From Lingula anatina (taxonomy: Eukaryota; Animalia; Brachiopoda), in contig CM120645.1 of the NCBI GenBank assembly GCA_051362555.1, forward strand, positions 16,182,001-16,246,000: a stretch of 64,000 bases of DNA, read 5' to 3'. Of this stretch, positions 10,228 to 63,717 are shown one piece after another. The notes under the pieces are model-generated. The model was not told the DNA's origin. It worked only from the letters and a program-made list of their open reading frames with translations, and did no database searches. The position numbers were made by a program, and so were the translations under genes. Numbering within the stretch: the first letter of the stretch is position 1; every line of letters starts with the position of its first letter.

Positions 10228-10265
<38 letters not shown>

Positions 10266-32090: not shown

Positions 32091-32131
32091 GATGGAAATT
32101 TCCGTGGGATGATTGAGAAATGTTTTTACTT

Positions 32132-34497: not shown

Positions 34498-34917
34498 TCA
34501 CACAGCAGTTTCTTTTCGGTTCAGTAAATCCTTTATATCATGCATCTGATCCCTCCAGACTTTTATGGCGATTTCCCCGGAGAGACAAGCCCTCATGGTC
34601 TTCTCCCAATATGCCTCCAAGGTCGGGTCCATTTTACCAGTTTCAAACTCTGGGGGGAAGTTGCCCTGCCTAATGCCGGCAATGAAGTCTCCAACTACAA
34701 GATTTCTGTGGCTTTTGTGCACATGTTCATTATGCCATATCTCCCACATCATGAGCCCAAGGGCGTAGATGTTGGCATCAGCATCGTAAGGTTTGGTGCC
34801 ATCGAGGACGCTGTAGGGGAGATAAACCATAGACCCTATGGGGGAGTTGGGATCTGGGGGTGGCATCGTGACAGGTTTGCTGATGTTCACTAACTTCACG
34901 GTTTTATCCCGCCCAGC
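34498..34917 (-). CDS. Gene B exon 8: pseudokinase C-lobe
   Basis: tatag|gct ggg; KLVNISK, YLPYS, ANIYALGLMMWEIW; stop TGA. Confidence 0.9.
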   Translation of the reverse strand, partial: AGRDKTVKLVNISKPVTMPPPDPNSPIGSMVYLPYSVLDGTKPYDADANIYALGLMMWEIWHNEHVHKSHRNLVVGDFIAGIRQGNFPPEFETGKMDPTLEAYWEKTMRACLSGEIAIKVWRDQMHDIKDLLNRKETAV

Positions 34918-37900
34918 CTATAAAAAATATAAGGGATCGTTCAGAATGAAATTGGTCGCAACAGCTCACTTACTCCTCGGGGACCCTCGCTGAATGCAAT
35001 CAGATTAACAGACTAACACGCCTCCTCTTGACGTTGAGTAAAATACGGAGAATGAGTACGCCAGTCACGTTAGAAAAAAAGAGGATTAAGCAAGTGCTAC
35101 CGTGAAGTTAATGTGCATGAACTATTGCGACCTAACTCCCCTAAGTGAACAGGTATGTGTGTAAACAGGTATGTGTAAAATTTCTAGTAATTTCCTTTAC
35201 ATATTACTAGGCGATTCTCCATCCCGCCATACAACTATATCTTTCTTTTGGAATATCATTACACATTACACACGGTCAATTCCACCATGTGCACCAGATT
35301 CCAGGACAATCCCCCCCCCCGATAATCCCCCCGCCCAGACAATACTCCCCGGACACCCCCCTCCCCCGAGTTGAGTACAAGTAGAGAAAGTATTATTAAA
35401 TATTTAATCAAAGTATAACCAGGTAAAGGTGGGGTAAACATATGAACAGTTCAACAGGTAAACATTTTTTAATTCTTTTTCTTTTTGTACGGCGGGAAGT
35501 GAGTAGGTGGATAGTTGTCAATCAATTAAAAGTGACATATAATCAAATGGATACCTGTATGAGTGAGAGAATATGTTTACCCAACCTCTCCCTAGAGATG
35601 CACCCTGGTGCAAGGCTTACTTAATCAGGGGGACGGATATTTTAGCAATTAAAAGTAACACTAAATTCATCTAAATGTTACCTGGATGTGTGAGATCATT
35701 TGTTTACCCCACTTTACCTGGAGATATACTTTGATAAGATTTTTAATAAAATTTTCTTTACTTCTATTTCTGAAATTTCCTGTACTTGTATTACATGAAA
35801 ATAATTTGTTTAATGAATTAAATATCTTCTATCTTTGAGATGCATTATCACACTAAGAAATATCCATACAATAGATGAATAGATTTGAGCTTCATACTCT
35901 TTACTTTATATTTGAATATAATTATTTATTCTTCGGGGGGGGGGGGTAGTCCGGGGGGGGGGGAGATTGTCCAGGGAGGAATTGTCAGGGGGGAACTGTC
36001 CGGAGGGGGGGGGGTTGTCCTGATACCTGTACACCTTATCTTGTACAAGGTTGTGAGTTCGCGACTGTTTATTTGTTTCTTGTAATGCTCTTTGCGCTCT
36101 GTGTCAAAAAGCAACAAAATCAAACTAAATCACAAGAGAAAGGAGAATTCAAGATAAAATTTGATATTTCTTTTTTATAAATACTCACGGTGATCATTAC
36201 TGTATCCATAGACAAATCCAAACAGACGAAGCCGTTCTTGTGCAGGTAGGCCAAGGCAGCCGCCAGTTGGATTAGACAATCTATCGGTTCTTTGAGTAAA
36301 CATTGGACCAGCTGACCCGGGACGACTTTTCGACTACCCTTGCCACTGCTGAGGACCCTCAAACTGGTCAAACGCGGGATCAAGATAAGAGATGGCAGTT
36401 CAGTTGTGGGGTCCAAATAAGTACCCAATATGGTGGGAATGAATCTCCTCTTTTGTTGCTTCATTTTTCTGGAAAAAATAATTTGTTCTTGTGTTATGTC
36501 CTATTTAATGTATGGTGCCAGCCATAAATCTCTACGATTAAGAAAGAAAAAACTAAACTGAAGTAAACATAGAGAATGTTTAAGACAAACAAGAGTTAAC
36601 TTCTTATTTCTACACACCTCATTTCAATGATATCTTCACGTACTTGCTTTTCACATGTAGCCCCTTTATATCGTTTTACAGATATTTTGAGGGATTGACC
36701 CTTTGGAGATTTTAAGATGGCAGAGAAAACTTCAGTCCAGTTTCCTTTATATGACGTTGGTCCTTTAACAAGTCTGATGTCTGCTTCCACATCTGTCTCG
36801 TTATAATCGTACGATAAAAGATGTGTAATAGCAAAATCTTCCAGCGCACGGTTAACTCTGGTAAACTTCTTGACGACAGGGTCATAGGTGTCGATGAGCT
36901 GCTCTTTAGACCGTTGATCTTCTTTAATGGACTGCATGTACTTTCTTGTTGATGATATAAGCTGTGGAATGGACTCGCGCATCATCTGTAGATGATCCCT
37001 GGCTTCTTGGAGTTGAGCATCGACGTAGGCCTTTGTAACATCACGCTTAGCCATTATTTTCAAAGCCTCGGATGACCTATCTCGAAGAAATTCACATTTC
37101 TTCTGGTCATATTGTTTTAAGATTTGTTTCTCTTTCCTCTTCCTCACATGTTTTTTTACGTCAACAAAAAGAAATGCCGGTGACGCAAGAAGCATACCCA
37201 ACGCACCAATGGGTAAAATGATAGGTGAAAATAAGCCGAGTGCAATTTTTTCACCTAGGTTAAAGTCTACAATTGACATTTTGTTCACCTCATTGTCCAT
37301 TAGGTCTTGTAATTCCATATAGGCTGCCAAATCTCTACTTTCACTGGAATCTGTTTCCGAGGACCGTTCCAGCATGTTTTCAATCATGCGCAGCTCAGAT
37401 TCAATTAACTGGAATTCTCTAGTGAATTTTTTGAACAAGTCTTTCTTCAGAGTTTCAAAATGTTTTTCGTCCGTTTCCCAAGACCTGATGGCATCAATGA
37501 TTCTTTTACAGATGGCATCTTCTATTCTTCCTTCTAAATAGTTCCAACTAAACCCATAAGGAGCTTCGGCATTGGTCCAAGAGGTAACTTGAGCACAGAC
37601 AGGATCGCTGCTAAGATATTTAGATAAAGAATCAGTAATGGTTTCACATTCTTTATAAAGATGTTCGTCTAGTTTTTTCAAAATTTCTTCCGACTTTTTC
37701 TCAAGTCTGTCCAGCCGTTTCTTCTGGGAGTTGTGCTGAGCCTCAAGTTCATCCCTTGTCAAATTGGCAGAATGAAGATACTGCTGAGCACAATCTATAG
37801 TGCGCTCTACCATATGTTTGCCCCATCTAAAATAAACATAGTATAAATAACCTCTATTATGAAAAATATTTTAAACAGCCTCAGGAACTGGCTCAAAATC

Positions 37901-40900
37901 AGCGCGCTATATAAAAATGTAAACGCACATTACAAATAGATATTGTTTATTAACATAATGTTAAATTGGGTGTCGTATTATTACTCAGGAACACGGAATG
38001 AGTTTACTTTAATAAAGAAATAAATAAACTGAAACACACCGGTGCACATGCTCCGTCCTTCTTTGCAAACTCACTGGAATCAGGCCCTTGATGCCTCTGA
38101 CCAGCCGCCTGTAGTCGTGAGTCATGTACCCAGCCTGACTGTGCTGCCACGCCATTTTAGCAGAAAGGGTAAATATCTGCTTTGATGAATCCATGGGCCG
38201 GTTCCAGCCCTCACTTACTGCCAAATGTACGTTCTCTAAAGCCTTTTCCCTTGCGTCCTCTGGCACCAGATCCCAGCGGTTGCAGACAAAAATAGCACAG
38301 CCAGGGTCAAATATTGGCTCTCCAGCAGTATCCTTCATATCTTGAAGTTGCCGGAGCAATTTTTGGATCTACGGAAAGAACATCAGATAAATAATAAGAT
38401 AAAGATGCTATCATATGGTCTTTGCACACTTCAAATCATTTCATTTATTCTCTCATCTTCAAACGAGAAAGAAAAGGCTATCACACATATTAGATTAAAT
38501 GGAACGTGTTGGAAGTGAGCTGAAAGTAATTTTTGAAAACAAATATTATTTTTAAATTATTAAAATGTTTAAGTCAATTTAGCGAAAATATTATTCCTGA
38601 CTGTTGGTGGCCGTTTAGGATTTTAAACAGTAAAAATGAAATCAGAAAAACTTCTAGTGAACACGTGAGCTGGGATAGTGGTATAAGGCTTGTTAATGAG
38701 TATTTTATATACACTTTGACCAAAAGACTGATCAGGCCTGGCTCAGCTCCTCTCGTTTAGTCGGCCAGTCCTCTTTCCTTCTTATTGCACAGCCTAGAGC
38801 ATCTCAAAAATGCTCTATGGGATTCGAACAAGGAGAAAAGGCAGGCTTGTCTATTTGCCCGGTAGGCCATTGAAGAATTGTTGCGTTCTTTGATCCCGAT
38901 GAAGCTTGTTGAAATAGAAAAAAGACCAAATTGGCTTGGTTTGATGATGGTTCGACCTTCATTATGACTACTACCGTTGGCAAGTTCTAACCCAAAAAGT
39001 ATTGAGCAAACCTACTAGTATCCCAAAATTGACATGGAACAAGGAGTCTTATATCAGTACTATGAAAAAACAACTACATTTTATCAGAAAACCAAACGTG
39101 CACCTAGTAACGCACGTGAAGGCAATGAAGTTGATGGGTCCATTGTAATGTGGGTTCTTCTGTTAGGTGAAGAAAATTTTGTCTGAGTCCTCTGAGAAAA
39201 ATCTGACAACTGTTCTTTGACTACCCATCTGGTAGAGCATACGATCCTTCCAGGTTGTAGTCTTAGGTGGGAAACCACTGCCGATGACTGATCACACATA
39301 TTTCTTTGACCTACAGCTGGATGATATTACGATTTATCTCAGGAAGCTACAGTATCTACTTTTCACACCTCAAGCCTTAAACAAATCAAGGACTATATCC
39401 AATGAAGATCTGTTAAAACAAAACAACCGGAGAAGCGTTAGTAAAGTCATCAGGAAAAGGAGATGGAAATGGTTTGGCCAAGTTTCACCACAAAAGTAAC
39501 CATGTACTAGACACCAGAGGGACACAGAAAAAGAGGCAGACCTAAGACCACGCGGAGGCTGAAACAACTGAGGGAAACCCGGGGAATCATTCAACACCTA
39601 GCTCGTGACAGAGCGCAGTGGGGGATCTTTGTCGGTGCCCTAGACGCCTGACTGCGTGAAAGGATATAGTAGTAGTAGCAGAATTGACAACCTATAACAG
39701 CACTAGACAAAACTGACATGCGACTCCAACTCCAACTCAAAAATGCACGTGACCCATCATATCATTCTGATAAGATATGTCACATAACCATAAGGTTATC
39801 AAATCTAATCAGCACTTTTGTATTAGGAAGGTGATTATCACACTTATACCATTGTGACGATAGTTAAGCTATTTTCATATTTCTGACAATTATTACGGTA
39901 CACTTTGAAATTAAATCATCTCTTGTTTTCGAAATATTCCATTATTTTAGCAAAGGAGTAAGAGGGCTAATATATTTGTATGGTGACTGGTGGTCACTTA
40001 AAGGAAGTTCATGTTCACCCCGCAAGGGCTCTTCGCAACTTTAAGTATGTTGATTTGAATATTTTTAAGCAATACACACTCAAATGCTTTTAATGCAATT
40101 TTGTCTGGGGAAAACTGAGCAAGTATATTGCCAGCAATATTATTGGAGAATTTAGAAAAGCTTTGAATACAATATCAGTGCAGTTTACTTACCCTATCTT
40201 CTTGTACTCCGCCTGACTTATCAGTCATAATGACGTAAATGAAGGCAAAGACGTCATTGTTGGCAATGAAGTCAAGAACCACGTCATCCATGACACCACT
40301 CTCACCAATACCAGGGCTGTCGATGATATACACACCACTCTAAGGGTATAACACCATTTTGTTTATGTATTTTGTGGATACTTAATGTGAAGGCATCATA
40401 CCTTTGACAGAAAGTTTAGCAATTTTCTGTGAAATTACATGTATATACCAGTTCCCAATTTAGTTTCATGTCACAATTTTGCACGGACAGAGAAGTAGAT
40501 CTCTAAAAAAACACAATCTATACATCATTTTCCATATGCCCTGTCTTTATGAAATACGTCATTACCTTTAACAGTTCAAACGGCAAATAAACATCAACAG
40601 TGCACTTTTCCAGTTCATCCTCCCTCGCTGCACCCTTAGGGAATAGAACAGGCTCCAAAGCCGAGCACAAATCATCAGGCTTCTTTATGGGGACTTCTGA
40701 CGACTTTCTGCTGCCGTCAGCATAGTGTGTCACTTTGAATACTCTAGGTTCTTCTCCATACTTTATTCTTGTTATCGCAGCTGTACAGCTTAGATGGGCT
40801 TCCGGTAGGATCTTCTTGCCAAGGAGAAGGTTCAAAAGCGTGCTCTTCCCCGAAGAAGTTTCGCCTAGATTGTGAAAAGCCGTGTATATGTGAAAATATA

Positions 40901-42351
40901 TATAATAAGGTCAAAGTGATAAACAAACAATCAAATGTAAAAAGCAATGTTTATTACATAAACGAATGAACCGATAAAATAATGTGAACAGGAAAGATTA
41001 ATTTTAAAAAAATTAAAAATTAATGACCCAATCTAGAAACATCATATAGATAAAATACATGTATTTATTATCAAATATGCCTATGCATGCGTGTGTAATC
41101 ATCGGATATTGTGATTGTGTTCCCTTTTACAACTGCACATGTCATAATACAGTTGAGCTCAGAAAAACGCTCCCGGTTGTTATCCGTCCGTTACTCACTT
41201 GTTAACAGCAATAATTATAAGGTATTAGAGCTGACATGTCTGGGGATAACACCCCATGCTCCAATGGGTAGCTCAACGACTGGCTAACGATAACACAGTT
41301 AGCAAACATGTATTGTGTTCATGTAATACAATCCATTCATAAATGAAAAAAATATCGCTACCAGTTAAGTGATAAAGCAACTGTTACTTTTGTTAACATC
41401 TAATTTATTCTGAACTCAATAGTATATATAATTTTAATGACATATTAGCAGAGGAAGAGTATTAAGTGCCCAATAATTTGATTATAAACAATGAGTTGTT
41501 TGATTAATAACTCCTACCTGCTACAAGTATTGGGCAGTTACCAGTTTCGAGCATGGTGATCCTTTTACGCACGTTTATGTCTGCGCTCTCAGATACAACA
41601 TTCTCAGCTTCCAGTCTCTTTAAGATGCTCAAGTCAAGTAATTGTAGGGACTCCTTAATGGTTTTAAAGATCGACTGAAGTGCATTTCTTCTTTGCGTAT
41701 CATTCTCTCGTAGTTCAGCGAAAACATCAGCAGCCTAAAATTATATATTTAAATAAACATACACAGTAACTTTTGCACCCTGGTGTCCAACAACATATTC
41801 AATATTCCCAACTGGTATAAGGAAAACGAGGATCAACTGCTCCACGTATCAAATATGGAAGACCCTGCATGAAAGAAGACCAGACAAATCCGCAGATAGG
41901 CTCCCCGCCTCCACACGCGCCATTAAACGATTTAATTCCCTAGCCCAAGGTTTAATTGCTGGACCTCTGCAAGGACGGCGCATGTGGAGACGCAGAGACC
42001 ATTAGCGGATTAGTCGGGTCTTCTTTCATAAAGAGTCCGCCATACTTGATCCGTGGATCAGAAGACCCTCAGGTTTTTCTATTCTGAATGGCCTCTATGT
42101 TTACAAAACAAAAGCAAACAAAAGTAAACGTGGGTATATTTGAATAAAAAGAAAGACATAGACTATACCTTTTCCAATCTGGGAACTTGAGAGTGTTCTG
42201 CCTCGAAATGTAAGCGAAGCCTTTCTTTTAGATCCTGTAGATCTTCAATGTCGTCAGTGTATATCTCATAACGATCGCAAATATCAAAGGCCTCCACGGA
42301 GTCGTTCAAAGACTCGATGGTGTCTAGAGTTATGTCAGTTATATTTGCCAT
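34498..42351 (-). CDS. Gene B: complete dynamin-like GTPase-membrane hairpin-pseudokinase protein, 1027 aa
   Basis: Eight GT-AG exons in frame: 42351-42169, 41734-41518, 40864-40566, 40339-40193, 38368-38040, 37826-36618, 36468-36189, 34917-34498 (3084 nt). G1 ILVAGETSSGKS, G2 SCT, G3 DSPG, G4 NRWD; degenerate kinase motifs identical to gene A. Confidence 0.92.
35294..36030. mobile_element. Foldback-type MITE with C-rich and G-rich arms in gene B intron 7
   Basis: caggacaatccccc... arm versus ...gggttgtcctgatacctg arm; internal inverted pair ccaggtaaaggtggggtaaaca / tgtttaccccactttacctgg. Confidence 0.65.
36189..36468 (-). CDS. Gene B exon 7: pseudokinase to CLDLSMDTVM
   Basis: ttccag|a aaa...acc|gtgagt; 280 nt. 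Confidence 0.9.
36618..37826 (-). CDS. Gene B exon 6: stalk, hydrophobic hairpin, pseudokinase N-lobe start
   Basis: Overlaps the 405-aa ORF; ttttag|a tgg...atg ag|gtgtgt. Confidence 0.92.
38040..38368 (-). CDS. Gene B exon 5: GTPase G4/G5
   Basis: gtag|atc caa; FVCNRWD; 329 nt. Confidence 0.9.
39385..39680 (+). mobile_element. RTE-type LINE 3' fragment
   Basis: ISNEDLL...IRKRRWKWFGQV, then PEGHRKRGRPKTT, followed by a (TAG)n tail. Confidence 0.65.
40193..40339 (-). CDS. Gene B exon 4: GTPase G3 (IDSPGIG)
   Basis: ttag|agt ggt...agg|gtaagt; 147 nt. Confidence 0.9.
40566..40864 (-). CDS. Gene B exon 3: P-loop GETSSGKS and G2 SCT
   Basis: ctag|gc gaa...aag|gtaatg; 299 nt. Confidence 0.9.
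41518..41734 (-). CDS. Gene B exon 2: helical neck leading to ILVAG
   Basis: ttttag|gct gct...gca g|gtagga; parallels gene C exon 2 (AA...ILVAG, phase 1). Confidence 0.85.
41818..42085. mobile_element. Long imperfect palindrome (hairpin MITE) in gene B intron 1
   Basis: atgaaagaagacc.gac.aatccgc versus gcggattagtcgggtcttctttcat; arms about 100 bp. Confidence 0.65.
42169..42351 (-). CDS. Gene B exon 1 (coding part): acidic N-terminal helical module
   Basis: ATG in gcagcaATGG context; aag|gtatag donor; acceptor at 42401-42402 implies an upstream UTR exon. Confidence 0.8.
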
Positions 42352-42529
42352 TGCTGCTACCGCCTCTTATTTCCAAGTATTTTGTGTTTTCTGTTATAAC
42401 CTAAAAATGATAAAGATGTGAATGGGTCGGTGTTTTTAAAAGAGAGAAAATGCACTATTATCTGTGTCAAAATTAGATTAAAGGATTTCTGGCCTTGAGA
42501 GTAATACAAAAATGCTGGTGATTATGGTG

Positions 42530-43130
42530 ATTATAATAATACTAATAATAATCATAATAATAATAATAATAGTTTATTAGGTAAAATTGGAAACCTACGG
42601 TTGAAGTTGTACAAAGTATGTTTAAAAGAAAATCGACAATAAACTTTAAATCATAAAGCAATATATGTGGTGTTTCGCCGAATTTGCAAATTTCGTAAAT
42701 GGAAGTATCATCAACATCTGGACAACAAGTTTTTCAGGTCATTGATCATTGCAAGGAAAAGAGTTAGGCCTAATTTAGTACCCTGAAGCACTCCTCCAAC
42801 CAATCAGAATTAAAGCTACTGCATTTTACTCGCAAAGAAAGGAATAAATCCATCGTCTTTGAAAGTCTGGTATCACTTGAATTTCTAATTTTTTTCATTT
42901 AGATATTGTGATCAATCCTTTTGAAAGCCTTAACAAAATTTAAGAATAACACCTGACCATAAGACTTTGTTGTGGGGGATGATTCAAGTCCTCCTATAGT
43001 AATTTATGTGTCAATTTAACTAGGGCATGGGAAGTTGAACGGGCACGCTGGAAACAAGATATCAAAATCGTCAAATAGGGGCGTTAAGGCATTAATTTCT
43101 AAAGAGGCTCTGTGTTGTATTCAGATCCAT
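42530..43130 (-). mobile_element. Degenerate CR1-like LINE fragment with (ATT)n tail
   Basis: Minus-strand RSTSHALVKL and NFVKAFKRIDHNI (RT DFSKAFD motif); (TAA)n at 42530-42572. Confidence 0.5.
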
Positions 43131-43715
43131 TGACCCATCAAGGTAACAGCCGAGTCTGTCTCTTTGTCACCTTGGTTATCACTATGGCAATGCAGTCGAG
43201 GTCAATCGATTATACGACAAGCGTTGTGCATTGAAAAGAGGAGTTATATGGCGTCATATCATATATCTGGGACCCAACAAGCATATACACTTGTATTTGT
43301 GAATCTTAGCATACATGTGACTGACTTAAATCGCAGATAGGACTATTCTAGTTCTGCTGAGGGTGAAGATATAGCCTACTAGTTCACTAACACCCCCTGG
43401 TGGTTTTGTTGTTGTTATGCGTTTTGTTGAGACCCTCACTTTACAGAAGGGAGCAAATAGGCTGGGGGCTTAAACAATGATTCAATTTCGACGTGAACAT
43501 TATTCGCCATTCTGCTGCAAAACTTCAAAAGGCATGTGTCAATGCATTACGATCACGTGGTATAAGTGTAATGTACATCTAGATTACCACGCAATCTGTT
43601 GGGCAACATCATTTGTTCAAAGAAAAAGCAATGATTCGCCCCCAGAAACTGAGGTCGGCGAAAAAAAAGAGATTGAATCCAGAACAGCAATATCTGAGTA
43701 TAGAGCAATAAAAGT

Positions 43716-43977
43716 AAGACCCCGTTTCTTAACCAAGATCGACATAGCAAGATCGACCCATCTCCGAAGGGTTTCTCGTTTAATTGCATTCCGCTTAAGC
43801 GGCTCTGATATCTGACACACCTACTGAAGCTATTAGGGGGTAAACAACTATCGTTAAACAACTTCAGTAGGCGTGCTAGACATCTAAATGACTGAAGCTG
43901 AATGCAATTTAGCGAGAAACCTGTTGGATCTGGGTGGATCTTGCTAGATCGATCTATGTATTGTAACGGTGTCTAAA
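43716..43977. mobile_element. Hairpin MITE (Harbinger-like ends)
   Basis: About 110-bp imperfect inverted arms: agaccccgtt...cctactgaag / cttcagtagg...aacggtgtct. Confidence 0.7.
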
Positions 43978-44205
43978 ATACGTTTTGTAGGCATTTTTCA
44001 TGCACTTTATATCATTATGACCACTTGATAGAATCCCGTCATTTTAATATGTATTAAAAAACACAATATGAATTACATGACGTGACTTTAACCGAAAAAC
44101 CTGCTTATGTCCATTGTATTGTCAGACTGCGTTATCCACGTGCAAATAGGGTCACTGGTTAATTTGTACGTCAGTTAATGTAACAGGATCAGGCATAAAA
44201 CTTAC

Positions 44206-44569
44206 CTTTGCTGGACATAACGTGGATTAAAACGGAGGGTAAAGGAACTCCACGATGTAATTCTTTTCGGCGAAGCGACTCTCTTCCAAGAATGTGCGAC
44301 TTCCATTAAATCGACCCCCAGATCAGCTGCCATCATTTGTATAACAATAATGTAGGTCAAAGATGTTTTTGCAACGGCACATCCAGGTGTGCTTGAAAAA
44401 TTGATAAATATACCTATTTTGTATAGTCTGGGCGTTGTCGTTGTGGAGAAAGAAGGATCTCAGGTGGGGAGAACATTACTAAGTTTAGCTGTAGTATAGG
44501 CGATACCTTCTATTAGCGTCTTAAAAAACAGGATCCATACTGCTTTTGTCTTTGTCGACCAACAGGCAG
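44206..44569. promoter_or_regulatory. Candidate bidirectional promoter and non-coding first exons of genes B and C
   Basis: Minus-strand donor AAG|GTAAGT at 44205/44206 and plus-strand donor CAG|GTGAGT at 44569/44570; both start codons are preceded by splice acceptors (42401-42402; 44857-44858). Confidence 0.5.
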
Positions 44570-51000: not shown

Positions 51001-54000
51001 ATATCCATTATGTTTAGCAGGAGCACATCAAGCCGTGCACTTGGCTTTTTGGAACGTTATAACTATATTTTTGTACAAAATTGTATCACCTTAAATGTCA
51101 TTTTACTTTTTGTTGTTGTAAAATACAGGACTAATTCGAAAATGGTTCCAATCGATCAATTATCTAAAAAATTTAGCGCAATTTTTATCTTCCTCGAGGC
51201 GCTATAACTTAAGTTTTAACAGCAGGATCTGCACCTTGTGACGTCTTTAATTGTTTATTGCTGTGCAATTCAAGGCAAGTTCAAAAATGGACCTCCTCCA
51301 TATATTATAATAATTTTGGTAATTTTATGTTTTTTATAGAATATTTCTGAGACAAAACAAGTAGACAATATTTTCGATTAATTGAAAACCTTTTTAAGAA
51401 ATGCTTGATTAAAATGCCATTGAAGTTTTCTGGTGCTATTAAACGTCTTCTTTGAAATGCTCACAGAATGCTTGCAAAATGTTTTTGTGGTATCCGTGGA
51501 AGCTTTCTATTTTCTTTTCTTTTCATAATTCGTTTTGTATATGCCAGGCTCATAGTGCACTAAAACAGGGCTGTGCGACACCTGAATTCTCCAAGTTTCT
51601 TGTTGGGCTGAGGAAGCTTTTTCCTAAAACCCTAAAATCAAACCAGGAGGATAAATACAGGTAACAAACGGTTCTTTGTAGCTGTTTACTTTATAATGGC
51701 TACCAAAAATATATCATTCAGTGAAAGGTTTATAAAGGATGAGCATGTTTAGACTCTGAACGTTTTGTTTTATTACTTAATTTAGACAACCATTTAACCA
51801 GAGAAAATCTACTTTTCATTTTTCATTCTCAATTTAGATTCGTGGTCCATATTCTGAGAAGATCTGCATTTCATCTTAAGTCAGCTTTGAATATCTTTGA
51901 AAGATCTGAAGAAGAGCGTAACAGAAAAGCTGCTGAAATCATGCTACAGATTGGAAAAATAAAGAACAGTTTTGAAAAGAATCGTTTTAAATTGCTAGGA
52001 AGTTTAAACACAAAGGCTAAAGAAGCTGCACGACTAATCAAAGATTACCTGAATAAGAATAACGAGCGTGTCCTAAAATGGAAAGATGGCGATTGTCCAA
52101 AGCCTACTGATCACTGGGATGACCTTTACACACAAGCTAGAACCCTCATCCTCGGGAGAATCCGCGAACTGCTTGAGGAATGGAACACCAACACGGCGTT
52201 CTTCACAAAAGCACAAAAGGAGCTTATAGGAAAGTTCCACGTAGAGTTCAACATCATGGAGAACCAAGTAGCTCTTTTGGAAGGTCAGTTAACCAGCAAC
52301 GATATGCTGGAAGTCGAGGATGCAAACCCCACAGGCTTAAGAGACGTGGAGGACACTGCTACGTTTACAACCACTGAAAAAGTCATCATTGGCGTCACTT
52401 CTCCAGTATGGATTCCAATAGGCCTTGTAGCTTCTCTTTTTGTCATCCCTGTTGCCCTTGGTGTAGCACTAAAAGAGCATCTCTTCGAGAAGAAACAAAT
52501 CAAAGAGTATAAAAAACACAAAACGGTGGTTATGGAATATATTGCAGGAAAAGTGCTCGAACATTTTATGTCAGAAGAAAACCTGTCGAAAGAGGTGATG
52601 CGGTACTTGAACTCTGCAGTTGCCACACTCAATAACCTACTCAGTGCTATTCCAAAACTCCTAGATGATGACCTACAGCTCATAAAAAGGTTGCTAAGTG
52701 AGAGTCAGACAGCAGAATCAGAGTTGCAGTTGTATCAGAAAAAGCTTCAACGAAATGATGCCTTAGAGGGATGTCTTGGGTTGCTGTACGTGACAAAAAT
52801 CCGTGAGGACATCAACGAGACAGAAATAGATTGGGAATCGCCTGCTTTTGCTTCTGGCACATTTGGCGAAGTTTATTACGTAACCCTTCTATCAAAAAAC
52901 AACATGAATGCAGCGGCAAAAGTGATGAAGCAGTCCGCAACAACAGAGAATGTGGGAGAGGCTATACTGGAGGAGGAATGCTTGAGGTGAGATGTACAGA
53001 TTAGGATAGATGCTAAGGTTTTACTTTATTATTTATTAATTTTATCAATGGCGAAAATGTCATTTAAAGTCGTTTAGGAAAGGGTGGACGTATTAAAATG
53101 CTGGTGTGTGTATTTTAATGTGTGAAGGGGGAAATGATTTTGCTACATTTAATACGAAGATTAGCATGATCAGTTTGACTAGTTTTGTTGATACAGGAGA
53201 CTTAACAGAACCCCAAACATCATCAAGTTCATAGGAACCAGCGCCATCATAAAGCCAGATGGTAACAGGCGCCTTGTCATTCTAATGGAGTACTGTCCTA
53301 CAACCCTTGCTGATCGTATGTTGAATGCAGATGCGACAAGGCCCAAAGGACAACGAGAGACCATAAATCCTGGTTTGAAGCAGCCATTAGATCATGGCCT
53401 CACGCGTTCCGTCGCTAACTTTGGTAGGCAAATATGCACTGGATTAAAAAGCATGCATGCTCAAGGATACGTTCACCGAGACTTGAAACCAGAAAACATA
53501 TTGGTAAGTCTGAAGTTGGCTGGATAAGATATTCCTAAAGCAACCCGCACAGTGAGCAATTGGCGCGCGCCACTTGCGCTGCGCCAGATGCTTGCGCTCC
53601 TCAGCTCCCCGCAAACGCTGCGCTCTTTGCTCAGCAGAGGTGCCTCCCGGCCTGCCCCTATCGGACGCACTGTGAACTGTGGGATCATGTGTTTAAGGAA
53701 ACATTACATATTGATTTTTTTTTCTGGTAGTAATGGAAAATGGTGACCACGTTAATCAATCAGACTAACTTTAACTGTGTACATTTTTGTTGACTTCGCT
53801 GGGGGATACCATTTTTGTTTGTTTCCGTGTGTCTCACCGTGTGCGGGGTGCTTAAGATGGAAGTTTTAGTGACTCAGACTTTATTTGTTATGGATGAATA
53901 GCATTTTATATACTACATATACTTCTTCATGGTATTATCAAAACTTCTGTTTTGATTCAGTACTTTGTACAGCAGTAATAATAATTATGTTTCCGTTGTA

Positions 54001-57000
54001 CAACGTTTTAAAAACGTTGGAAATGTTTTAATCCCTATCCTGTGAATAGAAGGGGGCGGACAAACAATGGAGAGCCGTCTAAATCCCTTCAAAATTCGAA
54101 CACAAAAACACAATAGTTTAGACGTAATAACACACAATATCTTAGGCGAGTGAACCCCATGACGCCGGTATCTGTGGTCCAGTCCGCTATATCATAGTGT
54201 AATTAACAGCAGGATACATCAGCCAGAAGGTCTCCATTGTTTGTTGTGGCGATAGGATTATAGCTGTAAGAGGCTTAAACCCATGCTACCAGGTGCCACT
54301 AAACCGTCTCCCGTAGCGAACTGTCCTTTTGTTCACTAGTTTGGCACGAGCAGCTGATTATCTTTTTTAGTGTTGCAAACAAACTGCTAGTTAAATTTGT
54401 TCTCAGGTATTTTATTCAATATGAATTTTCCGTAGTCAAAAATTGAACTAAGTATTGTTTGTTTTATTAACATGCATGAGAGTGAGCATCAACCTCAAAA
54501 AATTATTATTGCATTAATATATAAATGAATGATTTATTTATAAAATTACTGATTCAAGTATTTATAAAACATGAACGATAATGAATTCGGAATAAGGAAA
54601 AAAACAGCGAATAGCATTTTCAATAAAGAACAATACATGGCAAATATATTACTTATACTAGAATTATATTATTTAAATTAAATTAAATGAGGTGCATTGG
54701 CAGAGGCACAAGGAGAATCCAACGTGCTACACTACATGGGAGTACGGTCAATTTAAAGTGTAAATCATCAGTTAAAGAGGAGGAGGGGTCTTAACATAGC
54801 TCGCTCTCTATTGTTAAATGCGACTGTAGTTATCTCTCGAACAAGCTTAAAACATGCCCATACGATTACTGTGTCTGCGGCTGCCATGCAGAAACGCCAT
54901 GTCAAACATATTTTGCTACAGTTACAATCAGTGTATTTTGCTACAGTGAGAAACATGGTACACTAGCGACTTGTTTTAGATCACTGAAACAAGAATGCAT
55001 GCATGCGATACCTGGGGGGATACAATCAAGTATGCAACTGATCTATTAATTGTGATTGCACAGTACATGTAACTAGACCTTTGTTCTTACTCAGTAGTTT
55101 GGAATAGGATGCTTAGACAAAAATCTTCTATTCAACTCGCTTAGACCTAGGTCGTGATGCTGTTATCACCCGAGGAAACACCTTCACTGAACCCCCTACC
55201 GGAAGTCCCCCTAGCTAAAACAAAAAAATGCCCCTTGAAACTGTCCATTTGTTAATCGTCAAATGATTTGTGATTTCATTGAACGTCTTTGATCGAAAGC
55301 TTTTAAGTGACAATAACCTTGTGCTGAATATTTATTAAAGCGTACTGGTTGTGCCTATAATTCGCGCGACAATCCGCGTATACTCCATGTACGTATTTTC
55401 TCTGTACTCACGCCCCCTGAGAGACAATGGGTTGTTTTGATAAACTACAAAAGCCTGTGCGGGTAGCAAACAATAGCGACGTGGACTCATACAGGGCCTA
55501 AGCGCACAGGGGGAGGAGCGCATATGTAAATTATTGTACGGGTGATCCTTGGAGACCGGAGTTCGTCCTCGCCAAGCACGGCAGGGTGTTAATTGATGCG
55601 CGCTATAATCCCACTTAATTAACAGCTTTCAACTTGGCAGTATTGCACCTTGCTCTAGGCTGAATGTCGACCTGCCGTCTCGTTGTTTTGTTTGCTTCTT
55701 ACAATCAGGGGAATGGGCCTCTGCTATTTAATACATTTAAAGGATTTTTTAGTAGTTTTGGTGAATTTCTCGAACGATCAGTCAGTGGCCCATACCAATT
55801 AACTCTTCCGATCTTGGCAGGAGTCTCCCTAATTTTGGACGTATCTACCGATCCCTTTTGTCTCGATACATCACACTTTTCTCTTTGTCCTTACGTTTGG
55901 AAACTTCTCAGGTTAAGTAATAGGGGTATAGATAGCACTAAACAATAAAAAGAAAATACCAACGACAAAGCCGTGCCAGGTCTTCGTGTAAGTACCATCC
56001 AAAACACTGTACATGTATGTTGTTTTCGTGGAGACGAAGCTGGTTTCGAAAGGAACCTAAATAGCGATTTTAAAACCACAGCTAGGTAAGCTACCTGGAC
56101 ATTGTAATAAGTGATAGATACAATACAAGTCGCCGAGCCGAACGTGAAATTTAACGAGCGTATTGTCGAGCCACAGGTTGAGTAATTTTCGGGTACAGCT
56201 CGGTGGCGAGTGTTGTATCTAGCTTAAACCACAGCCTCTCATCGGTTAGTGCAATGTCCTCGCCAAATATTACTGAATGCCAGCTGAGCGGTGGAAAACT
56301 AATTCCATGCAAAAATTCTTGTTGGGCATTAGAAAAAATTATCAAAAATGACTTACGAGTGTGTCAATTTGCCTAACGGCAAGGGCTTAAGTGTTTGTGC
56401 AAGATCGGTCACATAACTGCATTCGCTTACTGCAACTCCTTGAATTATGAAATAGATTAATTAAAAGAAGATCTTTAATTGATACGTGTGCAAATGCTGT
56501 GGAGGAGAGTTCGCCCAAACAAATCATTAATGGTAAATGGCATTTGATTAGCCTTTGTTGTGAACACAATAACATCATGTATCAAGTAAGTCCAAATTAA
56601 AAAAGTTTTAATTTTTTTCAATTTACTTCATGTATTATAACAAGAATAATTATCAATGTTGTTTTCATGTGTACATGTACGTCCTAGGGATGGATGGTGG
56701 AAGTAAAAGACTGTCATACTTTTTTTGATATCCCGCTTGTCGGCGGTGGAAATTACAATACAACGCTTCGTTTGCTGGTTAATGATCGCATTAAGTGGTG
56801 GCCGATTTCGCACCTTTTACATTTCATTCAATGGCAGTTACAACTGGTAGTCGCCCCTTTATTTCGGTGTCCAGTGTTACCTAATGACTGGGTTGTAATT
56901 GACCTTCATATTAAAAACTATTCCATTCTTTGTCTAGGTCTACTAGTATACATCCCAAGAGCGTTCTCAGGCGGCAATTGTTAATCATTAAACAATAGCG

Positions 57001-60000
57001 ATAAAGCATCGGTTTCGGCAAATTTCAATCTTTTGGGCCATCAACAGTGCCTAAATATTCAAGAGACACCAGTAAACTAAAGTAAACTAAAGTTATAACT
57101 TCTTGGGGTGAATCAAAATTTTCTCAATTAGGTGCTGGTAGGCTAATGAAAGACTAGGAAATAATCGTTTATTGCATCGAGAATTTAATCCTGTGCAACC
57201 TTCTACAAAATGAAGATTTTTCACTACTGCATGGCTCGTTATTCATAAAGAATGTTTTTAACGTTTTATAAGGTTTTTGACAGATAAATAATTTCACCAA
57301 AGAATCTGCTCTCCGTTATTTGTTTTATTTAGATTTGATTCATTTTATTTAGGAGAAGTCAACAGATATAAAAAGAAAAGAAATACAGGTAGAGGAAAGA
57401 GGAAACTATCAAGAAAAAGTGATGGGAATCCTTAATATTAAAAACATTTACGGGAAATAAGATTGATGTCCTTATCTCCCCTCTTTTTCTACCAAGCCCG
57501 CTTGCTCAAATGATTCATTCCTACTTCGGGGAAAACAAATGATAAAATGCAGAAAATGTAGAAAAGAAGGACACGAACGAGAGAAGAGGGACGGGAGTCT
57601 TTAATATCAAAATATTTACGGGAAAAAAGTATGTGAGAGTGATCTTTATCTTCCGTCTTTCTCTGCCAGGTCGTCTTCTCCAATGCAGGTGCTCTCTGCT
57701 AGTTTTAAAAATATCTTTCTGCATAGACAGCTTGACGATTGGTGATTGAATAATTTCCAGATAAAATATTTAAATACTGTGGCAAGAAAAGGAGACGAGC
57801 CCCCCCCCCACCCCCCACCCCCCCTGTACAAAGAAGCAATGAATTAGAATGTTGTTATTACTGCAATTTTACAAAATTATATTTCTACGGTGAACCACTC
57901 CAGGACATAAATATATCCCACTTAGTGCACAGCAGCTTGAGCGCTTTGTGGGGTATCAGCCTGCGACAAGCAAAGTTTAAATTTGTATGAATGTATTTTT
58001 AATGATATCCTTTTTCAAAAAGGCATCACTTTCACTTCTTCACGCGCACAGAGTCCTTTTTCGCATGGCTTAATTGCTGTCGACCTGCCTCCCTCTACAT
58101 ATAAAATTCAAGATGGCGCACGTGCAGTGACAGGTCCGCATGGCTTGACAGAATAAGTTGACCGAATAATACGCGAAAAACTTTAAATGAGATCACCATA
58201 TAATGTCACGGTAAAAGACGTTAAAGAAGCCAATATACAGATAATCTTCACAACGTCTGAAGTAGTTTATTTAATTTTTGCTCATTACCTCAGACGGCAC
58301 GCTCCGTGGTTTGTGACCGATACTGCATTACGTCATTTTCAAATTAACGTTGCCCGTTATGGGGGAAAATTGTAGATAGCAGGACAAAAAACTCACAAGT
58401 AGAATAAATATTAAATCTTTCAAACAAAACTTTGCAAAGTGAAGCAGAGCCCGTCAGCAAGGCATGAGATAGGACATGTGTCAGCCTAGAGAAAGGAACA
58501 GTACCGGCAGATAAGCAACTATGTAATTACGTCGGCTTATGGCAAGCGGCAATTAACTCCCCGTCGACAATGAACAGGGTGAGAAGCCGCCTCCGATGGA
58601 CAATCGGGGATTGATTTGCATATTAGCGAACATAGGGCGGGCTTGACGTCTTCTCATTTTCATTGCCATTGTGTTTTGCCCTATAATTATCTCGTCACCA
58701 TGTACCCGTACTGCTAAACGACAGACAACTTATAAATATCATCTGTGTTACTGTGTAAATGACCACATTTAGTTAAAATATAACGATGTCGGTGATTTAA
58801 TCCATCCAACATATCTAAATTTGTTCTTTTAAAACCAGTGTCAGGTTAACACCAAATCAAAGCAAGCCTTGATGACTGGTTTTGTTTAAAATATTGTAAA
58901 TTAAGTAAAGCTAAATAAAGCCTGTTTCTAGTTCACAGTGTTTATCCCAGCTACATATACTACAGGGGTATAACAAGACTCCGCAGCGAATTTACTTTCA
59001 CAATACTCTGTGCTTCAAGTTTCCTAGAGTCCCGTTTAATACAATAACATCGAAAAGTATAGCCTAAGTGTAATATAATTATGAGGCCGTGTATGGAAGA
59101 TTTTACATTTCAGAAATTAAAGAATTTAAACATGCTACATGTAGGTTCGTGCACATCACTTAAGTCATTTCACAAAAATTGCACCTAATTGTTTAGATTA
59201 ACCTCTACTTTTATCGATCTCAACGCCTTGTCTGATCCACCTGAAAGAAATATAGTGAACATGAGGCAAACTAACACGTTTACATGTATGCGAAGGGGGT
59301 ATACTTCAATATTGATTGCAAACAATATCAAGAGCGATTCAACACCGTTGCCTGTCTTTCACACGTTTACACGAACACACGAAGGTCGCGTCGCGATATC
59401 TATCTCTCTCTTTCGAACAAGGGCTGACCCGAAGTAAGCTTTCTAAACTAATTTCCTTTTGATTGTGTATTGTAATTACTCCACTTGCTCGCCTCCATTG
59501 TCTTGTAAAAGTGACAAAGAATGTGTTGTTTTCACACTCGAGTTGATAGAACTTTACACAACTCCTTTCCCTTGTTACATAATGTCTTTATCAAGGTTAT
59601 AATCAGTGTGAAGAGGGTGTCTGGCCTCACCTAAAAAGGCAGTTGATTTTCATACTGGTTGTTGCTTAACTCATGCTAACCCACTCTGTACAAATAATTA
59701 TGGTTTCAATAAATCGACAAAATTATGACATTTATGAACAGTGTGTATCAAACGTATTGATACGATTGAAATAAATGGACAAGAAGGATTACGGTATTAG
59801 TTACTATTTACCTTTGGCGTTAACTTCGCCCTGCTATATAAATGAACAAATGTTGCAGATTGTAACAAAAAATTTATTTTTGTGTTTTAATGACATATGC
59901 TTTACATATTTGATAGTGAAACACTACTCGGCTTTAATGAATCACCTGATGTTAACTATGTCTCCCCCTCCCATGCCTCCCGAAAAAACTGCTTCTTTTA

Positions 60001-60449
60001 AATTCGAAATGAATTGTTTTTTTAGACAAAGAAGTTCCCTTTTACGTTTCGGTCATTGTACAGCACGTTGTAATTGGTATTTAAAAAAGTTAATTATTGT
60101 ACTCCGCTTTTCAGTGTTCATCCTGGTGCTTTCATCGGGGATACCTCAGGTTGAGGTACGATTACGTCGCTAGCCTAAATCCATATTTTACTGGAATATA
60201 TTTAAGTACACGTAAAGCTTTGTGAAGTCCCTATTGTCACACATCATAGATAGGGCCTACTGAATTTTGTCTTGAATGAAAAAAATACCCACAACTTATC
60301 GTTTTGTGCTTAAACCTTTCATACTTTGGACCGAGGTTTGATATACAGTGTACTGTAGCTATTATGACATTCCTCAGCATCTAAATGAGAAACGAGGATG
60401 TTTTCCTGTAAAAGCAGCAGCGGCGGTTTAAATGATCGCTATCTCGGTT

Positions 60450-60498
<49 letters not shown>

Positions 60499-63400
60499 AG
60501 CGCAACATAGAAAGTGTTTAGGGAGAAAGTCACACAAAGACCGACGTTGTTTTGTCTTCACATTTACTCTTCCTTTTTTACTGCAATTACTATCGTCAAT
60601 TCATGAAACCGATAAAGCAAATAAGTGACGACACATTGAATATAGTCATAAGGTGCATTTCGCTGAGTGTTTACAAGATCTAGCCACACATTTTATCGCC
60701 ACGCGTTCTAGTCTGATAAAAAAGGGGGCGTTTATGCTGAATCGGAGAATTAGGAGATATGTCACTAAATGGGAAGATTCTCGAGGAGACCGATAGTGTT
60801 GAAAGGTCTGAATAATTTTGTTTAAATGTGAAGGCTAGCTTAGATTATCATACAATGGATGGTATCATAATTGCCTAATATCTTCAGTGTGTGCAACAAG
60901 TGGCGCAACAAATGATAATAAAAACATCAGGAAGAAAGCGGAATAGAATATTTTGAAATTTAAACAGTCACTCATGGCTTTGAATCTGACATCGAATTTA
61001 GCCCAAAATATAAGTAAATTCAGAATTATTAGCTAAAACGTAAATTTACATCTTCCCTTATTTGTCAGATAAAAAAAAATGCCGGTGATCAAAGCGCAGG
61101 ATATGCTTTCCTGAAGGTAGCGGCCACGAACGGCGACGGTGTTTTTCTGAACAATTTACCAGTGAAACTGTATTAGTTACGAAAAGCCTCCTTTTCAACA
61201 GGCGTGTTCTATTAATTAATTCATGTCACAGAGTAAATTTATAAAGGCAAAATTTCATTCAAGGAACTAGTTCCAAGAAATAAACGGGAGCAAAATATAA
61301 GTCAGCACACATATAGACCATACAACAATGAGTCTATATTTAGAGCATAATCCCTCCTGTTATGCATATATGGGCCATCACCTTTTTTCACCGCGAGCCC
61401 CTTTAATTAATATATTGTAGTACTTATTCTACCCATTTCATTTGATATCTCTGTTTCTTTCCCTACCCCTTTCTCTTGTTAGAAGGAGGTTAAATAATTA
61501 AGCACTAAAAATCTGCATCACCAATCTTCAGAAAAGAATAAATGAATGAACCACTGGGCTGGTCCACAACGTCCGACACAGCAGAATGAATCAAATAACA
61601 GCTTTCACAGATTCAACTGCAGTTAGCTATATAGTGTCACTACAAATATAATCCACTGCACGTGCGAAGCTGTTGAACAAAAGGATAGTTCGCCACGGGA
61701 GACCGTTTGTTTACATAAGTACTCTAAGGGGGAGTGCCTACCCAGGCGACCAGGGGATTAGGCTAGTCACTATATTCCGTCAAAAATCGTTTGGCGACCC
61801 TATAATTATCACACTCCCTCTATTGTATTATCTGTCGTTATAATCGCATCTAATCTTCTTTTGGTTGACGGAATAAATGCACACATCCATAATATTAGGA
61901 CGGTACAACGTTTTTCTGTTGTTCAGTACATATGTGATTATCCAAATGCGAAATGTTTGCGCAAATAACCAATTTAAGGGCATATTCCCATAGATTTTAG
62001 ATCGATCTAGCCCCGTAGGGAGTCTCACTAGATTACTGTCAGATAATCCGGCTTAAATGTCCGTCCCGCCTACTACAAGCTGTAAGGGGGTAATTAACTT
62101 TCGTGCCCGCTTGGCTGACAGCTATTTAGCGTGAACCCCCAGGGAGTAAGGTCGATCTAGTTTGGATCGATCTAATCTCTGGGAATGGGGTCTAAGATGC
62201 AATGCTCCTTTTTGAAATAACCCTTTGATGTCATCAGGTAACAGCTAAAGATGAAATTCGACTTGCTGATGTTGGGCTGACAAAACTGCAGAGTGACATC
62301 ACTGGTACACAATGTGGAACATTGGTTTATATGGCACCAGAAATCCTGAGGAAGGAAAAGTACGGGGCACCTGCAGATATGTACACTGTTGGGGTCATGA
62401 TTTGGGAAATGTGGTACGGAAAACGCATCTACAACCTACCTTGCTTCGAGAGCTTTGAAAATATATCAGATATTTTGGAGGTGAGTTATGAAATTATTAC
62501 ACAGAATGAGTAGATGTTAATTCAGTGCAAACTGAATATCATTCAAAAAAAGTATATCGACTAAAACCATTTACATCATAAAATTCATCGTACAAAAGGG
62601 GGAAATGTTCTCACTCGGGTTTAAGAGTCGGTATCTACTGGAAGCCACCTTTACAATGTAATATATTGGGCAGAGATGGTAATATCCTTATTCTGAATCT
62701 CATGGTGACTACCGTCAATGTATTCATTTACAAGTGCATGGATTTTGCCAGATTTTGTGGATTTTTAGTCTTCGTTTGATCGTTTTATTTCATATGGTCT
62801 AAATGAGAAATGAAAAGTGAGCGATAAGAAAACGCAAGCTAAGTTTTCAAGCACTTCAGTTTTACAACCTTCACTCATTCATTTAAATATTTGGGTTTCA
62901 AATACATGGATTTACCCTTCTCAATCTTCCATAGGCCAATAAACCATTTTAACCCAATATTGATCCACACTAAAAAAACTTGTCTAAACTGAAGCACGAA
63001 AAAAAATTAATCGGGATTAAGAAAGCCATGATTGTAAACCATCATTATTAGTATCCTCTACCAGGGCCACAGATTGATTTTGCACACGGTATTCACAGAT
63101 AAGTTTTAAGATAAATAGACGGCTATTTTACTATCTCTGACTCTGCCCTGAAACCGCCAGGTTAATTACATGACTGGTAATTCTATGCATAACAGCTCAG
63201 GCACTGCCACTTAACGGGCCCAAGCCAAGTCCCCTTGACAGCAATCTAGACAGTTAATTGCTCAGATTTTAATCACTTTTTTTTTGACAAATAAATATAA
63301 CCCCTAAATGGCTTGTTACTAAAGATACTTACTAAAATTTCCTGCAGTAGCTCCCCACAGAGTGGGCACAATGTCATCTTTGCGCATGCATATTTAATTG

Positions 63401-63717
63401 CTTCCGTCTGGCCAAAAGTTACAGGGAGGCTTTTGGAAATTTTGCCCTTAATATCTGCCACCCTGCTAGAAGATAATAATTTAACACATTTTCCCATTGT
63501 TAATATTTTATATTGTGAGGAAAGGTTAAACGTTTATTTTCATTTCCAGCTTGATTGGGCATCACTTATTACCCTTGAGGGTTTTACACCGCCGCCTCCT
63601 ATATGGTGCAAGAATTTAGAAAAACTGCTTTCCCCCACACCATCTGAAAGACCAACCGCAAGCAAAATGGAGAAATTCCTCGAAGAGGAAACCCGCAAAA
63701 GATTCCATTATAAGTAA
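44864..63717 (+). CDS. Gene C: dynamin-like GTPase-membrane hairpin-active protein kinase (DSTYK-like architecture), 1018 aa
   Basis: Ten GT-AG exons in frame: 44864-45055, 45306-45513, 47069-47358, 47706-47846, 49711-49956, 51548-51660, 51838-52986, 53197-53503, 62238-62480, 63550-63717 (3057 nt). G1 GETGAGKS, G2 SCT, G3 DSPG, G4 NKWD; kinase ASGTFGEV, AAAK, HRDLKPEN, DVG, YMAPE, DMYTVG, ERPT. Confidence 0.93.
45306..45513 (+). CDS. Gene C exon 2
   Basis: ttcag|gcc...gca g|gtatat; ends ILVAG. Confidence 0.88.
47069..47358 (+). CDS. Gene C exon 3: P-loop GETGAGKS
   Basis: ttcag|gt gag...cag|gtaaca. Confidence 0.92.
47706..47846 (+). CDS. Gene C exon 4: G3 MDSPGIG
   Basis: tacag|gga...agg|gtaata; not in the ORF track. 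Confidence 0.9.
48925..49390 (+). mobile_element. L2/Crack-type LINE 3' fragment
   Basis: HIIPILKELHWLPVKQRIDFK and FGDRAFIIYAPKVWNALP; (ATT)n tail. Confidence 0.75.
49711..49956 (+). CDS. Gene C exon 5: G4 FVLNKWD
   Basis: ttgtag|ctt...aag|gtgaga. Confidence 0.9.
51548..51660 (+). CDS. Gene C exon 6
   Basis: gccag|gct cat...tac ag|gtaaca; phase 0 to 2 fits both neighbours. Confidence 0.85.
51838..52986 (+). CDS. Gene C exon 7: stalk, hydrophobic hairpin, kinase N-lobe
   Basis: 382-aa ORF; VIIGVTSPVWIPIGLVASLFVIPVALGVAL; ASGTFGEVY; AAAK. Confidence 0.93.
53197..53503 (+). CDS. Gene C exon 8: kinase to HRDLKPENIL
   Basis: atacag|g aga...ttg|gtaagt. Confidence 0.93.
54035..54263. mobile_element. 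Probable MITE
   Basis: Inverted pair acaaacaatggaga / tctccattgtttgt near both ends. Confidence 0.5.
60452..60497. repeat. Long poly(T) run
   Basis: Direct reading. Confidence 0.9.
61975..62195. mobile_element. Probable MITE just upstream of gene C exon 9
   Basis: attccca.agatt..agatcgatc with inverse gatcgatctaatctctgggaat; internal ctgtcag / ctgacag. Confidence 0.6.
62238..62480 (+). CDS. Gene C exon 9: DVG, activation loop, APE
   Basis: atcag|gta aca; RLADVGLTK...CGTLVYMAPE...DMYTVGVMIWEMW; gag|gtgagt. Confidence 0.92.
63550..63717 (+). CDS. Gene C last exon: kinase C-terminus
   Basis: ttccag|ctt; PSERPTA (subdomain XI); TAA. Confidence 0.85.
   Translation, partial: LDWASLITLEGFTPPPPIWCKNLEKLLSPTPSERPTASKMEKFLEEETRKRFHYK

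Follow-up and report, generated by a model that had tools for sequence, protein, structure and literature searches.

Animal dynamins of the bacterial dynamin-like protein (BDLP)/mitofusin branch have been known mainly as mitofusins. Most genes for bacterial dynamin-like proteins (DLPs) are, by one published account, paired, with two diverged paralogues lying side by side, and in Campylobacter the pair becomes active as a GTPase and binds lipid once it has tetramerised (PMC6104087). The members of such systems (Cj-DLP1/DLP2, 5owv; Nostoc BDLP, 2j68/2j69; mycobacterial IniA, 6j72) have a G domain, a neck/trunk helical stalk and a hydrophobic tip. Heterotypic pairing of isoforms is described in the same account for the mitofusins (MFN1/MFN2, Fzo1; PMC6104087), and two co-located dynamin-like genes form the anti-phage system Eleos (LeoA/LeoBC), for which Cury et al. 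count 415 co-localised homologues across 317 eukaryotic genomes (10.1101/2022.12.12.520048). Here we describe two genes, B and C, that stand head to head in a 64,000-nucleotide stretch of the brachiopod Lingula anatina (GenBank assembly GCA_051362555.1, contig CM120645.1, positions 16,182,001 to 16,246,000 of the forward strand; hereafter the window). Gene C is predicted to encode a BDLP/mitofusin-class GTPase fused to an active protein kinase, and gene B its diverged paralogue with a pseudokinase. They belong to a large invertebrate group of the BDLP/mitofusin branch in which intact GTPases are fused to a kinase fold. Heterotypic dynamin-like pairs are already known; a kinase/pseudokinase output of such a pair has apparently not been described before.

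Gene models were assembled from exon coordinates, starting from a six-frame reading in which both strands carried exon-sized frames that code for a P-loop GTPase, a long helical stretch and a kinase. The two genes (lengths in amino acids, aa) are as follows:

34498..42351, minus strand: gene B, predicted BDLP/mitofusin-class GTPase-pseudokinase, 1027 aa, 8 exons (open frame, GT..AG introns, Pfam matches, junction reads)
42351-42169, 41734-41518, 40864-40566, 40339-40193, 38368-38040, 37826-36618, 36468-36189, 34917-34498, minus strand: exons of gene B
44864..63717, plus strand: gene C, predicted BDLP/mitofusin-class GTPase-kinase, 1018 aa, 10 coding exons (open frame, GT..AG introns, Pfam matches, junction reads)
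44864-45055, 45306-45513, 47069-47358, 47706-47846, 49711-49956, 51548-51660, 51838-52986, 53197-53503, 62238-62480, 63550-63717, plus strand: coding exons of gene C

Neither model contains an internal stop, every intron is GT..AG, and 2513 bp separate the start codons of the divergent genes. All seven introns of B are matched by introns of C in aligned position and phase (0,1,0,0,2,2,0), the two in the kinase region to within 2-3 alignment columns, and C has two further introns. The proteins themselves are 27% identical over 968 aligned columns (BLASTP E 8e-77). An earlier reading of the DNA from its letters alone (the sequence-only reading) had described two roughly 1020-aa genes that share seven introns yet are highly diverged, transcribed divergently with about 2.5 kb between their starts, and the gene models bear out each of these points. 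B is 98% identical to L. anatina LOC106178620, and C is 99% identical over 886 aa to L. anatina LOC106179517; the near-identical database proteins all come from this species and are all named "uncharacterized".

The proposal of a BDLP-class dynamin joined to a kinase fold, also made in the sequence-only reading, agrees with domain and structure searches. Pfam Dynamin_N and Pkinase match the exons of both genes and near-identical full-length relatives, with Dynamin_N above its cut-off in B-type and C-type proteins alike, as for G domains of the BDLP/mitofusin class. Motifs G1-G4 are intact in B and C and conserved across both types, and the closest solved sequences for the GTPase part are BDLP, IniA and Cj-DLP. 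AlphaFold2 was run on a C-type relative (P0011, 90% identical to C; pLDDT 83.7, pTM 0.81) and a B-type relative (P0008, 98% identical to B; pLDDT 75.0). In both models a small helical module at the N-terminus precedes a G domain, a long stalk whose hydrophobic tip is poorly predicted (pLDDT <50), and a kinase fold. The top Foldseek match of the C-type model is BDLP (E 2e-19). Structural alignment of the B-type model with VIA-align gives mitofusin-1 as the best match of the modelled G domain and neck (5yew; Z 28.9, root-mean-square deviation 4.7, 353 aligned), with BDLP at Z 21.7 (525 aligned) and Cj-DLP at Z 21.4; its kinase part matches the RET and JAK2 kinases (Z 21.6-21.7, RET 21.7). Over residues about 60-730 the models match BDLP and mitofusin, with the predicted chain returning to the G domain as expected of a neck/trunk stalk, and one hydrophobic segment lies at the stalk tip (KD19 maximum 2.14 in B, 2.37 in C). 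By these models, B and C are GTPases of the BDLP/mitofusin class that combine a stalk and hydrophobic tip with a kinase fold.

Several features set the locus apart from its nearest relatives. Unlike the bacterial pairs, B and C are animal genes that bear introns and diverge rather than forming an operon, their heteromer is a proposed one, and each protein ends in a kinase or pseudokinase and begins with a small helical module. Unlike the mitofusins, to which identity in the structural alignment is 16-18%, they are fused to a kinase fold and belong to a multicopy, lineage-variable family. The N-terminal module (B residues 1-55, C residues 1-60, in the first coding exons) is a conserved three-helix unit in both subfamilies and a candidate sensing or assembly element. 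Its identification as a SAP domain was dropped, since the match was weak (E 0.012), occurred in C only, and SAP was not among the 25 most-matched families in 44 C-type and 40 B-type members.

The kinase folds of the two proteins differ in their catalytic motifs, most visibly in the catalytic loop:

53474..53497, plus strand: intact catalytic loop of C (HRDLKPEN)
36201..36224, minus strand: degenerate catalytic loop of B, with CLDLSMDT replacing HRDLKPEN (subfamily signature H-x-[ED]-L-[ST]-x-D-T)

C has the Gly loop, beta-3 Lys, alpha-C Glu, HRDxKxxN, DxG and APE motifs, all conserved in 61 kinase-type sequences; it is a protein kinase with the full motif set and is predicted to be active. B has lost the Gly-loop pattern, the HRD Arg, the Lys and Asn of the loop, the DFG Asp and APE. 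Because the loop Asn, the DFG Asp and APE are missing, B is predicted to be a catalytically dead pseudokinase, the absent DFG Asp being decisive for this class. The sequence-only reading thus had the split right, with C complete and B degenerate, and overstated it in saying that B had lost all catalytic motifs: the beta-3 Lys, an alpha-C Glu and the catalytic-loop Asp are retained. Residues conserved specifically in the B type cluster in the catalytic and activation region of the pseudokinase, a pattern that is partly circular because the class is defined on the loop. Comparison of B with gene A, a second B-type copy in the window (coordinates below), gives a ratio of nonsynonymous to synonymous substitution (dN/dS) of 0.30 overall and 0.36 in the pseudokinase, values that indicate purifying selection on the B-type pseudokinase.

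Related sequences suggest that the B type is ancient. A search with a profile of six Lingula proteins (E <= 1e-30; 150 matches listed of 250 representatives) gave a first set of 850-1350 aa, from which three sequences without a P-loop and one with a truncated kinase were dropped; among the matches listed, it held 43 sequences with intact and 42 with degenerate kinases. A later set of 117 sequences (880-1200 aa) comprised 61 intact, 48 with the B signature (H-x-[ED]-L-[ST]-x-D-T, DFG Asp missing, beta-3 position still Lys or Arg) and 8 otherwise degenerate. Because the class itself is defined from motifs, trees provide independent tests of it. In the kinase-domain tree, 47/48 B-signature sequences form one clade, also when the motif columns are removed (support 0.91 and 0.85). 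From the GTPase and stalk, the free tree of the first set places 36 of the 42 B-type sequences together. After thinning to <45% identity (66 sequences, leaving out the otherwise degenerate ones and two outliers), a tree of the same region that keeps the 28 B-type sequences together is 7.2 log-likelihood units better than a free quick search (approximately unbiased test, P = 0.64). A single origin of the B-type pseudokinases is favoured by these trees, not proven. Named B-type sequences come from Branchiostoma, Saccoglossus, Pinctada, Sinanodonta, scallops, Dreissena, Tubulanus, cuttlefish and Lingula, so on this sampling the B type is an old conserved subfamily of a brachiopod, molluscs, a nemertean, a hemichordate and amphioxus. 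No vertebrate, arthropod or nematode names occurred among 58 family sequences in a word-limited search (73 matches; 8/58 unnamed). We considered that B might be a decaying recent duplicate of C; purifying selection and the old B-type clade rule this out.

Two further observations concern the family. Eight sequences (P0086, P0098, P0106, P0111, P0116, P0157, P0159 and P0160) form a separate unnamed clade in which intact and degenerate kinases are mixed, pointing to further independent kinase loss. The model of P0004 (L. anatina LOC106164177) is chimeric, C-type through the catalytic loop and then B-type in the kinase C-lobe, and may be a genuine recombinant of the two types or an annotation fusion.

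The pairing of the two types recurs beyond this locus and this genome, contrary to the sequence-only reading's refuting possibility that it is unique to the latter. Outside the window, neighbour status was taken from locus or accession numbers and scaffold length, not from genomic DNA. Among L. anatina RefSeq genes, an opposite-type gene lies no more than 1-2 LOC numbers away, with equal scaffold length, for 6/8 named B-type and 6/9 named kinase-clade genes, giving six neighbour pairs (106174708/710, 106179516/517, 106178620/621, 106164176/177, 106166322/321 and 106163465/463). For the remaining genes partners may have gone unseen, and some young copies could be alleles or products of conversion. 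The pair 106163465/463 shares just 36-37% identity with B and C, and in the tree its two members each branch as sister to the other Lingula copies of the same type; this mirrored placement at such low identity suggests that the pair was duplicated as a unit long ago. In amphioxus, kinase and pseudokinase genes are consecutive in B. floridae (BRAFLDRAFT_81321/81322) and B. lanceolatum (CAH1255340/CAH1255337-9) and near-consecutive in a B. floridae x japonicum hybrid assembly (LOC144886844/144886833); in Saccoglossus both lie on one 448,542-bp scaffold. Two diverged DLP genes side by side, the genomic mark of a heterotypic DLP pair, are therefore found in the DNA of the window and, by locus numbers, in Lingula and amphioxus. 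A candidate pair in Saccostrea cucullata (112,771-bp contig) was dropped, as both genes are kinase-clade and one is degenerate. The kinase and pseudokinase subfamilies apparently split before protostomes and deuterostomes parted and have since been kept as neighbours.

Raw RNA-read runs bearing the same species label support the gene models and give a limited view of expression. Five of the seven B introns appear in the table of read joints and a sixth has 2 reads per run; seven of nine C introns are supported, the 8.7-kb intron among them. Read depth is low, and the reads possibly come from paralogous copies, because most are 90-99% alike. The reads and gene models define two elements between the coding regions:

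42352..44467, no strand: shared upstream region of divergent B and C, ~2 kb (orientation from gene models; near-zero read depth at 42711-44004)
44468..44569, plus strand: 5' non-coding exon of C (its own 5' end undefined), joined to the acceptor at 44858 (joint 44555-44857 with 11 letters between, in runs X18-X20; donor placed from sequence)

We infer that the first of these is a bidirectional promoter of B and C. Among the four runs covering both genes, B and C are both seen clearly in X18, weakly in X12 and not at all in X15 or X16; C is also present in X19 and X20 and absent in X13, in which C only was examined. Across these four runs the genes track together, as the proposed co-expression would have it.

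These observations suggest a mechanism in which B and C, as an animal counterpart of the bacterial pairs, would be two subunits of one membrane-bound complex, the pseudokinase controlling the kinase after GTP-driven assembly, and we lean modestly towards it. The two proteins would be made together from the shared promoter in the roughly 2-kb upstream region, and the hydrophobic segment at the stalk tip would bind membrane. Hetero-oligomerisation would then switch on GTPase activity and lipid binding, as in Campylobacter DLP1/DLP2. Because the kinase fold follows the returning stalk helix, assembly would juxtapose pseudokinase and kinase, and the B pseudokinase could serve as allosteric partner or substrate of the C kinase, turning a membrane event into phosphorylation. 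In RIPK3/MLKL and JAK JH1/JH2 a dead kinase fold regulates an active one or receives its signal, and Roco/LRRK2 proteins hold a GTPase and a kinase in one chain. B and C resemble these in design logic only, differing in GTPase class and scaffold and in that both are large GTPases, paralogous and of full length. In our estimate, at somewhat less than even confidence, the likeliest trigger is membrane stress or a membrane that contains a pathogen, and routine organelle remodelling is the main alternative. When the C-type kinase (residues 700-1019) and the B-type pseudokinase (715-1027) were modelled as a complex, the score was 0.00 with the alignments unused by the tool, a result that favours neither side.

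A number of observations weigh against such a two-subunit system. Adjacency beyond the window is read from accession or locus numbers and scaffold lengths, and the three amphioxus cases are one orthologous locus. In an incomplete sampling of Pecten, Argopecten, Ylistrum and Dreissena, no chromosome or scaffold held B-type and kinase-type matches together, and all seven named coral sequences are kinase-clade, none B-type. The S. cucullata kinase-clade neighbours show that ordinary tandem duplicates exist in the family. B in the window is closest to LOC106178620 and C to LOC106179517, which belong to different RefSeq pairs; young copies are thus not strictly co-diverging, which suggests gene conversion or reshuffling. 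Free trees of the GTPase and stalk often split the B type. KD19 exceeds 1.6 at the tip in only 36/61 kinase-type and 25/48 B-type proteins. Finally, patterns like the interferon-stimulated response element are absent from 42352-44467 (12 matches in the window against 6 expected), as are NF-kB-like patterns, whose single match in the window lies outside this region.

Three other explanations account for parts of the evidence. B and C could descend from an old inverted duplication that has stayed linked through slow rearrangement, each protein forming its own homo-oligomers and the kinase fold of B having a scaffold role of its own. Amphioxus, hemichordate and Lingula genomes do rearrange slowly, and the unlinked types in the four bivalves sampled and the restriction of corals to the kinase clade fit passive linkage. 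Against this, the pair has been copied as a unit within Lingula, including the ancient 36%-identical copy with its mirrored tree placement, and ordinary macrosynteny is far looser than the immediate adjacency seen from brachiopod to amphioxus; we regard this explanation as fairly unlikely. Alternatively, B could be linked to C and co-regulated with it without a stable complex, acting as a competitor or decoy with a dead kinase; it would dampen C by taking up membrane sites or upstream signals, or would absorb pathogen inhibitors aimed at C. The genomic and phylogenetic evidence would look the same as for a complex, and B, with its full GTPase and hydrophobic tip, could compete for the same membranes. 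However, the concentration of B-specific conservation in the catalytic and activation region, partly circular as it is, speaks against a decoy, and a decoy is expected to track its partner, yet B and C have kept only about a quarter of their residues in common. We consider a decoy quite improbable.

The last explanation is that B and C are plain orthologues of DSTYK (Dusty, RIPK5) with its known endolysosomal role, one of them decaying. DSTYK is of similar size, has a long N-terminal non-catalytic region followed by a C-terminal kinase, and is the nearest named cluster by features in the ESM Atlas, where DSTYK-named clusters are listed at 0.91; one coral relative is automatically named DSTYK-like. 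To our knowledge, DSTYK is single-copy in vertebrates and lacks a pseudokinase partner. It is described as localising with LAMP1 and Rab7a and affecting lysosome biogenesis, and as consisting of two non-catalytic regions and a kinase (PMC6981171); another account sets it apart from RIPK1-7 (PMC9573974). A search of the ESM Atlas with GTPase and stalk alone, skipping Dynamin_N clusters, returned bacterial clusters and no DSTYK, and a motif check recognised no DSTYK among the proteins collected; neither result weighs for or against orthology. The DSTYK-named clusters display no Dynamin_N at the 10% threshold, whereas the two nearer clusters (0.97 and 0.96) carry it in 98% of members. In addition, B is under purifying selection within a bilaterian-wide pseudokinase subfamily, and the B/C family is multicopy in Lingula. 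On these comparisons of clusters, selection and copy number plain DSTYK orthology looks unlikely, and the full explanation, with a known role and a decaying copy, very unlikely. The comparison does suggest a hypothesis for the unexplained N-terminal region of human DSTYK.

Copy-number turnover and expansion, together with weak LeoA/LeoBC matches, are an indirect hint of an immune trigger for the proposed complex. In PADLOC, a C-type protein matches LeoBC at E 2e-8 across residues 73-749, and B-type proteins match LeoBC at about 1e-6 and LeoA at 3e-5 to 2e-4; such low scores may reflect generic BDLP likeness. We know of no kinase in Eleos. The text of Cury et al. available to us makes no mention of kinase fusions, and their supplementary hit table may list such loci (10.1101/2022.12.12.520048); the word "kinase" does not occur in a second preprint (10.1101/2023.06.28.546890). 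A literature search found no description of a dynamin-kinase/pseudokinase pair, most subscription journals and supplements lying outside it. More speculatively, and with considerable doubt, the pair could be a bilaterian-old, two-gene, cell-autonomous defence: a BDLP/Eleos-type pair on damaged or pathogen-containing membranes that fires its kinase via the pseudokinase, retained and expanded in brachiopods, molluscs, hemichordates and amphioxus, and lost in vertebrates, with DSTYK perhaps a degenerate solitary relative. B and C offer a concrete two-protein system for the coupling of membrane remodelling to phosphorylation, and they bear on whether the bacterial paired-dynamin design, its anti-phage use included, survives in animals.

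The window also contains further copies of the family and several repeats:

1986..11029, plus strand: gene A, second B-type copy, last 5 exons (first 3 outside the window), inverted relative to B and 79% identical to it
1986-2132, 2328-2656, 8409-9623, 9943-10222, 10604-11029, plus strand: exons of gene A
23163..23741, minus strand: broken C-type stalk exon fragment with stops (tblastn 43% over 187 aa; blastn 75% over 528 bp to 51821-52332)
25723-32629, minus strand: young BEL/Pao long terminal repeat (LTR) retrotransposon with identical 498-bp LTRs (25723-26220, 32132-32629) and a 5-bp target-site duplication
3198-5437, minus strand: broken reverse-transcriptase element of the long interspersed nuclear element type, in the intron of A between 2328-2656 and 8409-9623
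61984-62193: short repeat whose ends appear to be inverted, a little upstream of C exon 62238-62480; highly represented in RNA reads, which have loose ends on either side
13924-14632: 4.9 tandem copies of a unit of 146 bp (93% matches)
41820-42080: inverted repeat, imperfect (68% over 272 bp), within intron 1 of B

Along the gene, synonymous divergence of A from B ranges between 0.22 and 0.72, a spread suggestive of gene conversion, and the inverted gene A and the broken C-type fragment indicate that the locus is a small, actively rearranging cluster. The short repeat at 61984-62193 is likely a high-copy miniature inverted-repeat transposable element. The BEL/Pao element has one 1940-aa open frame with matches to Peptidase_A17, DUF1759, an integrase zinc-binding domain and DUF5641.

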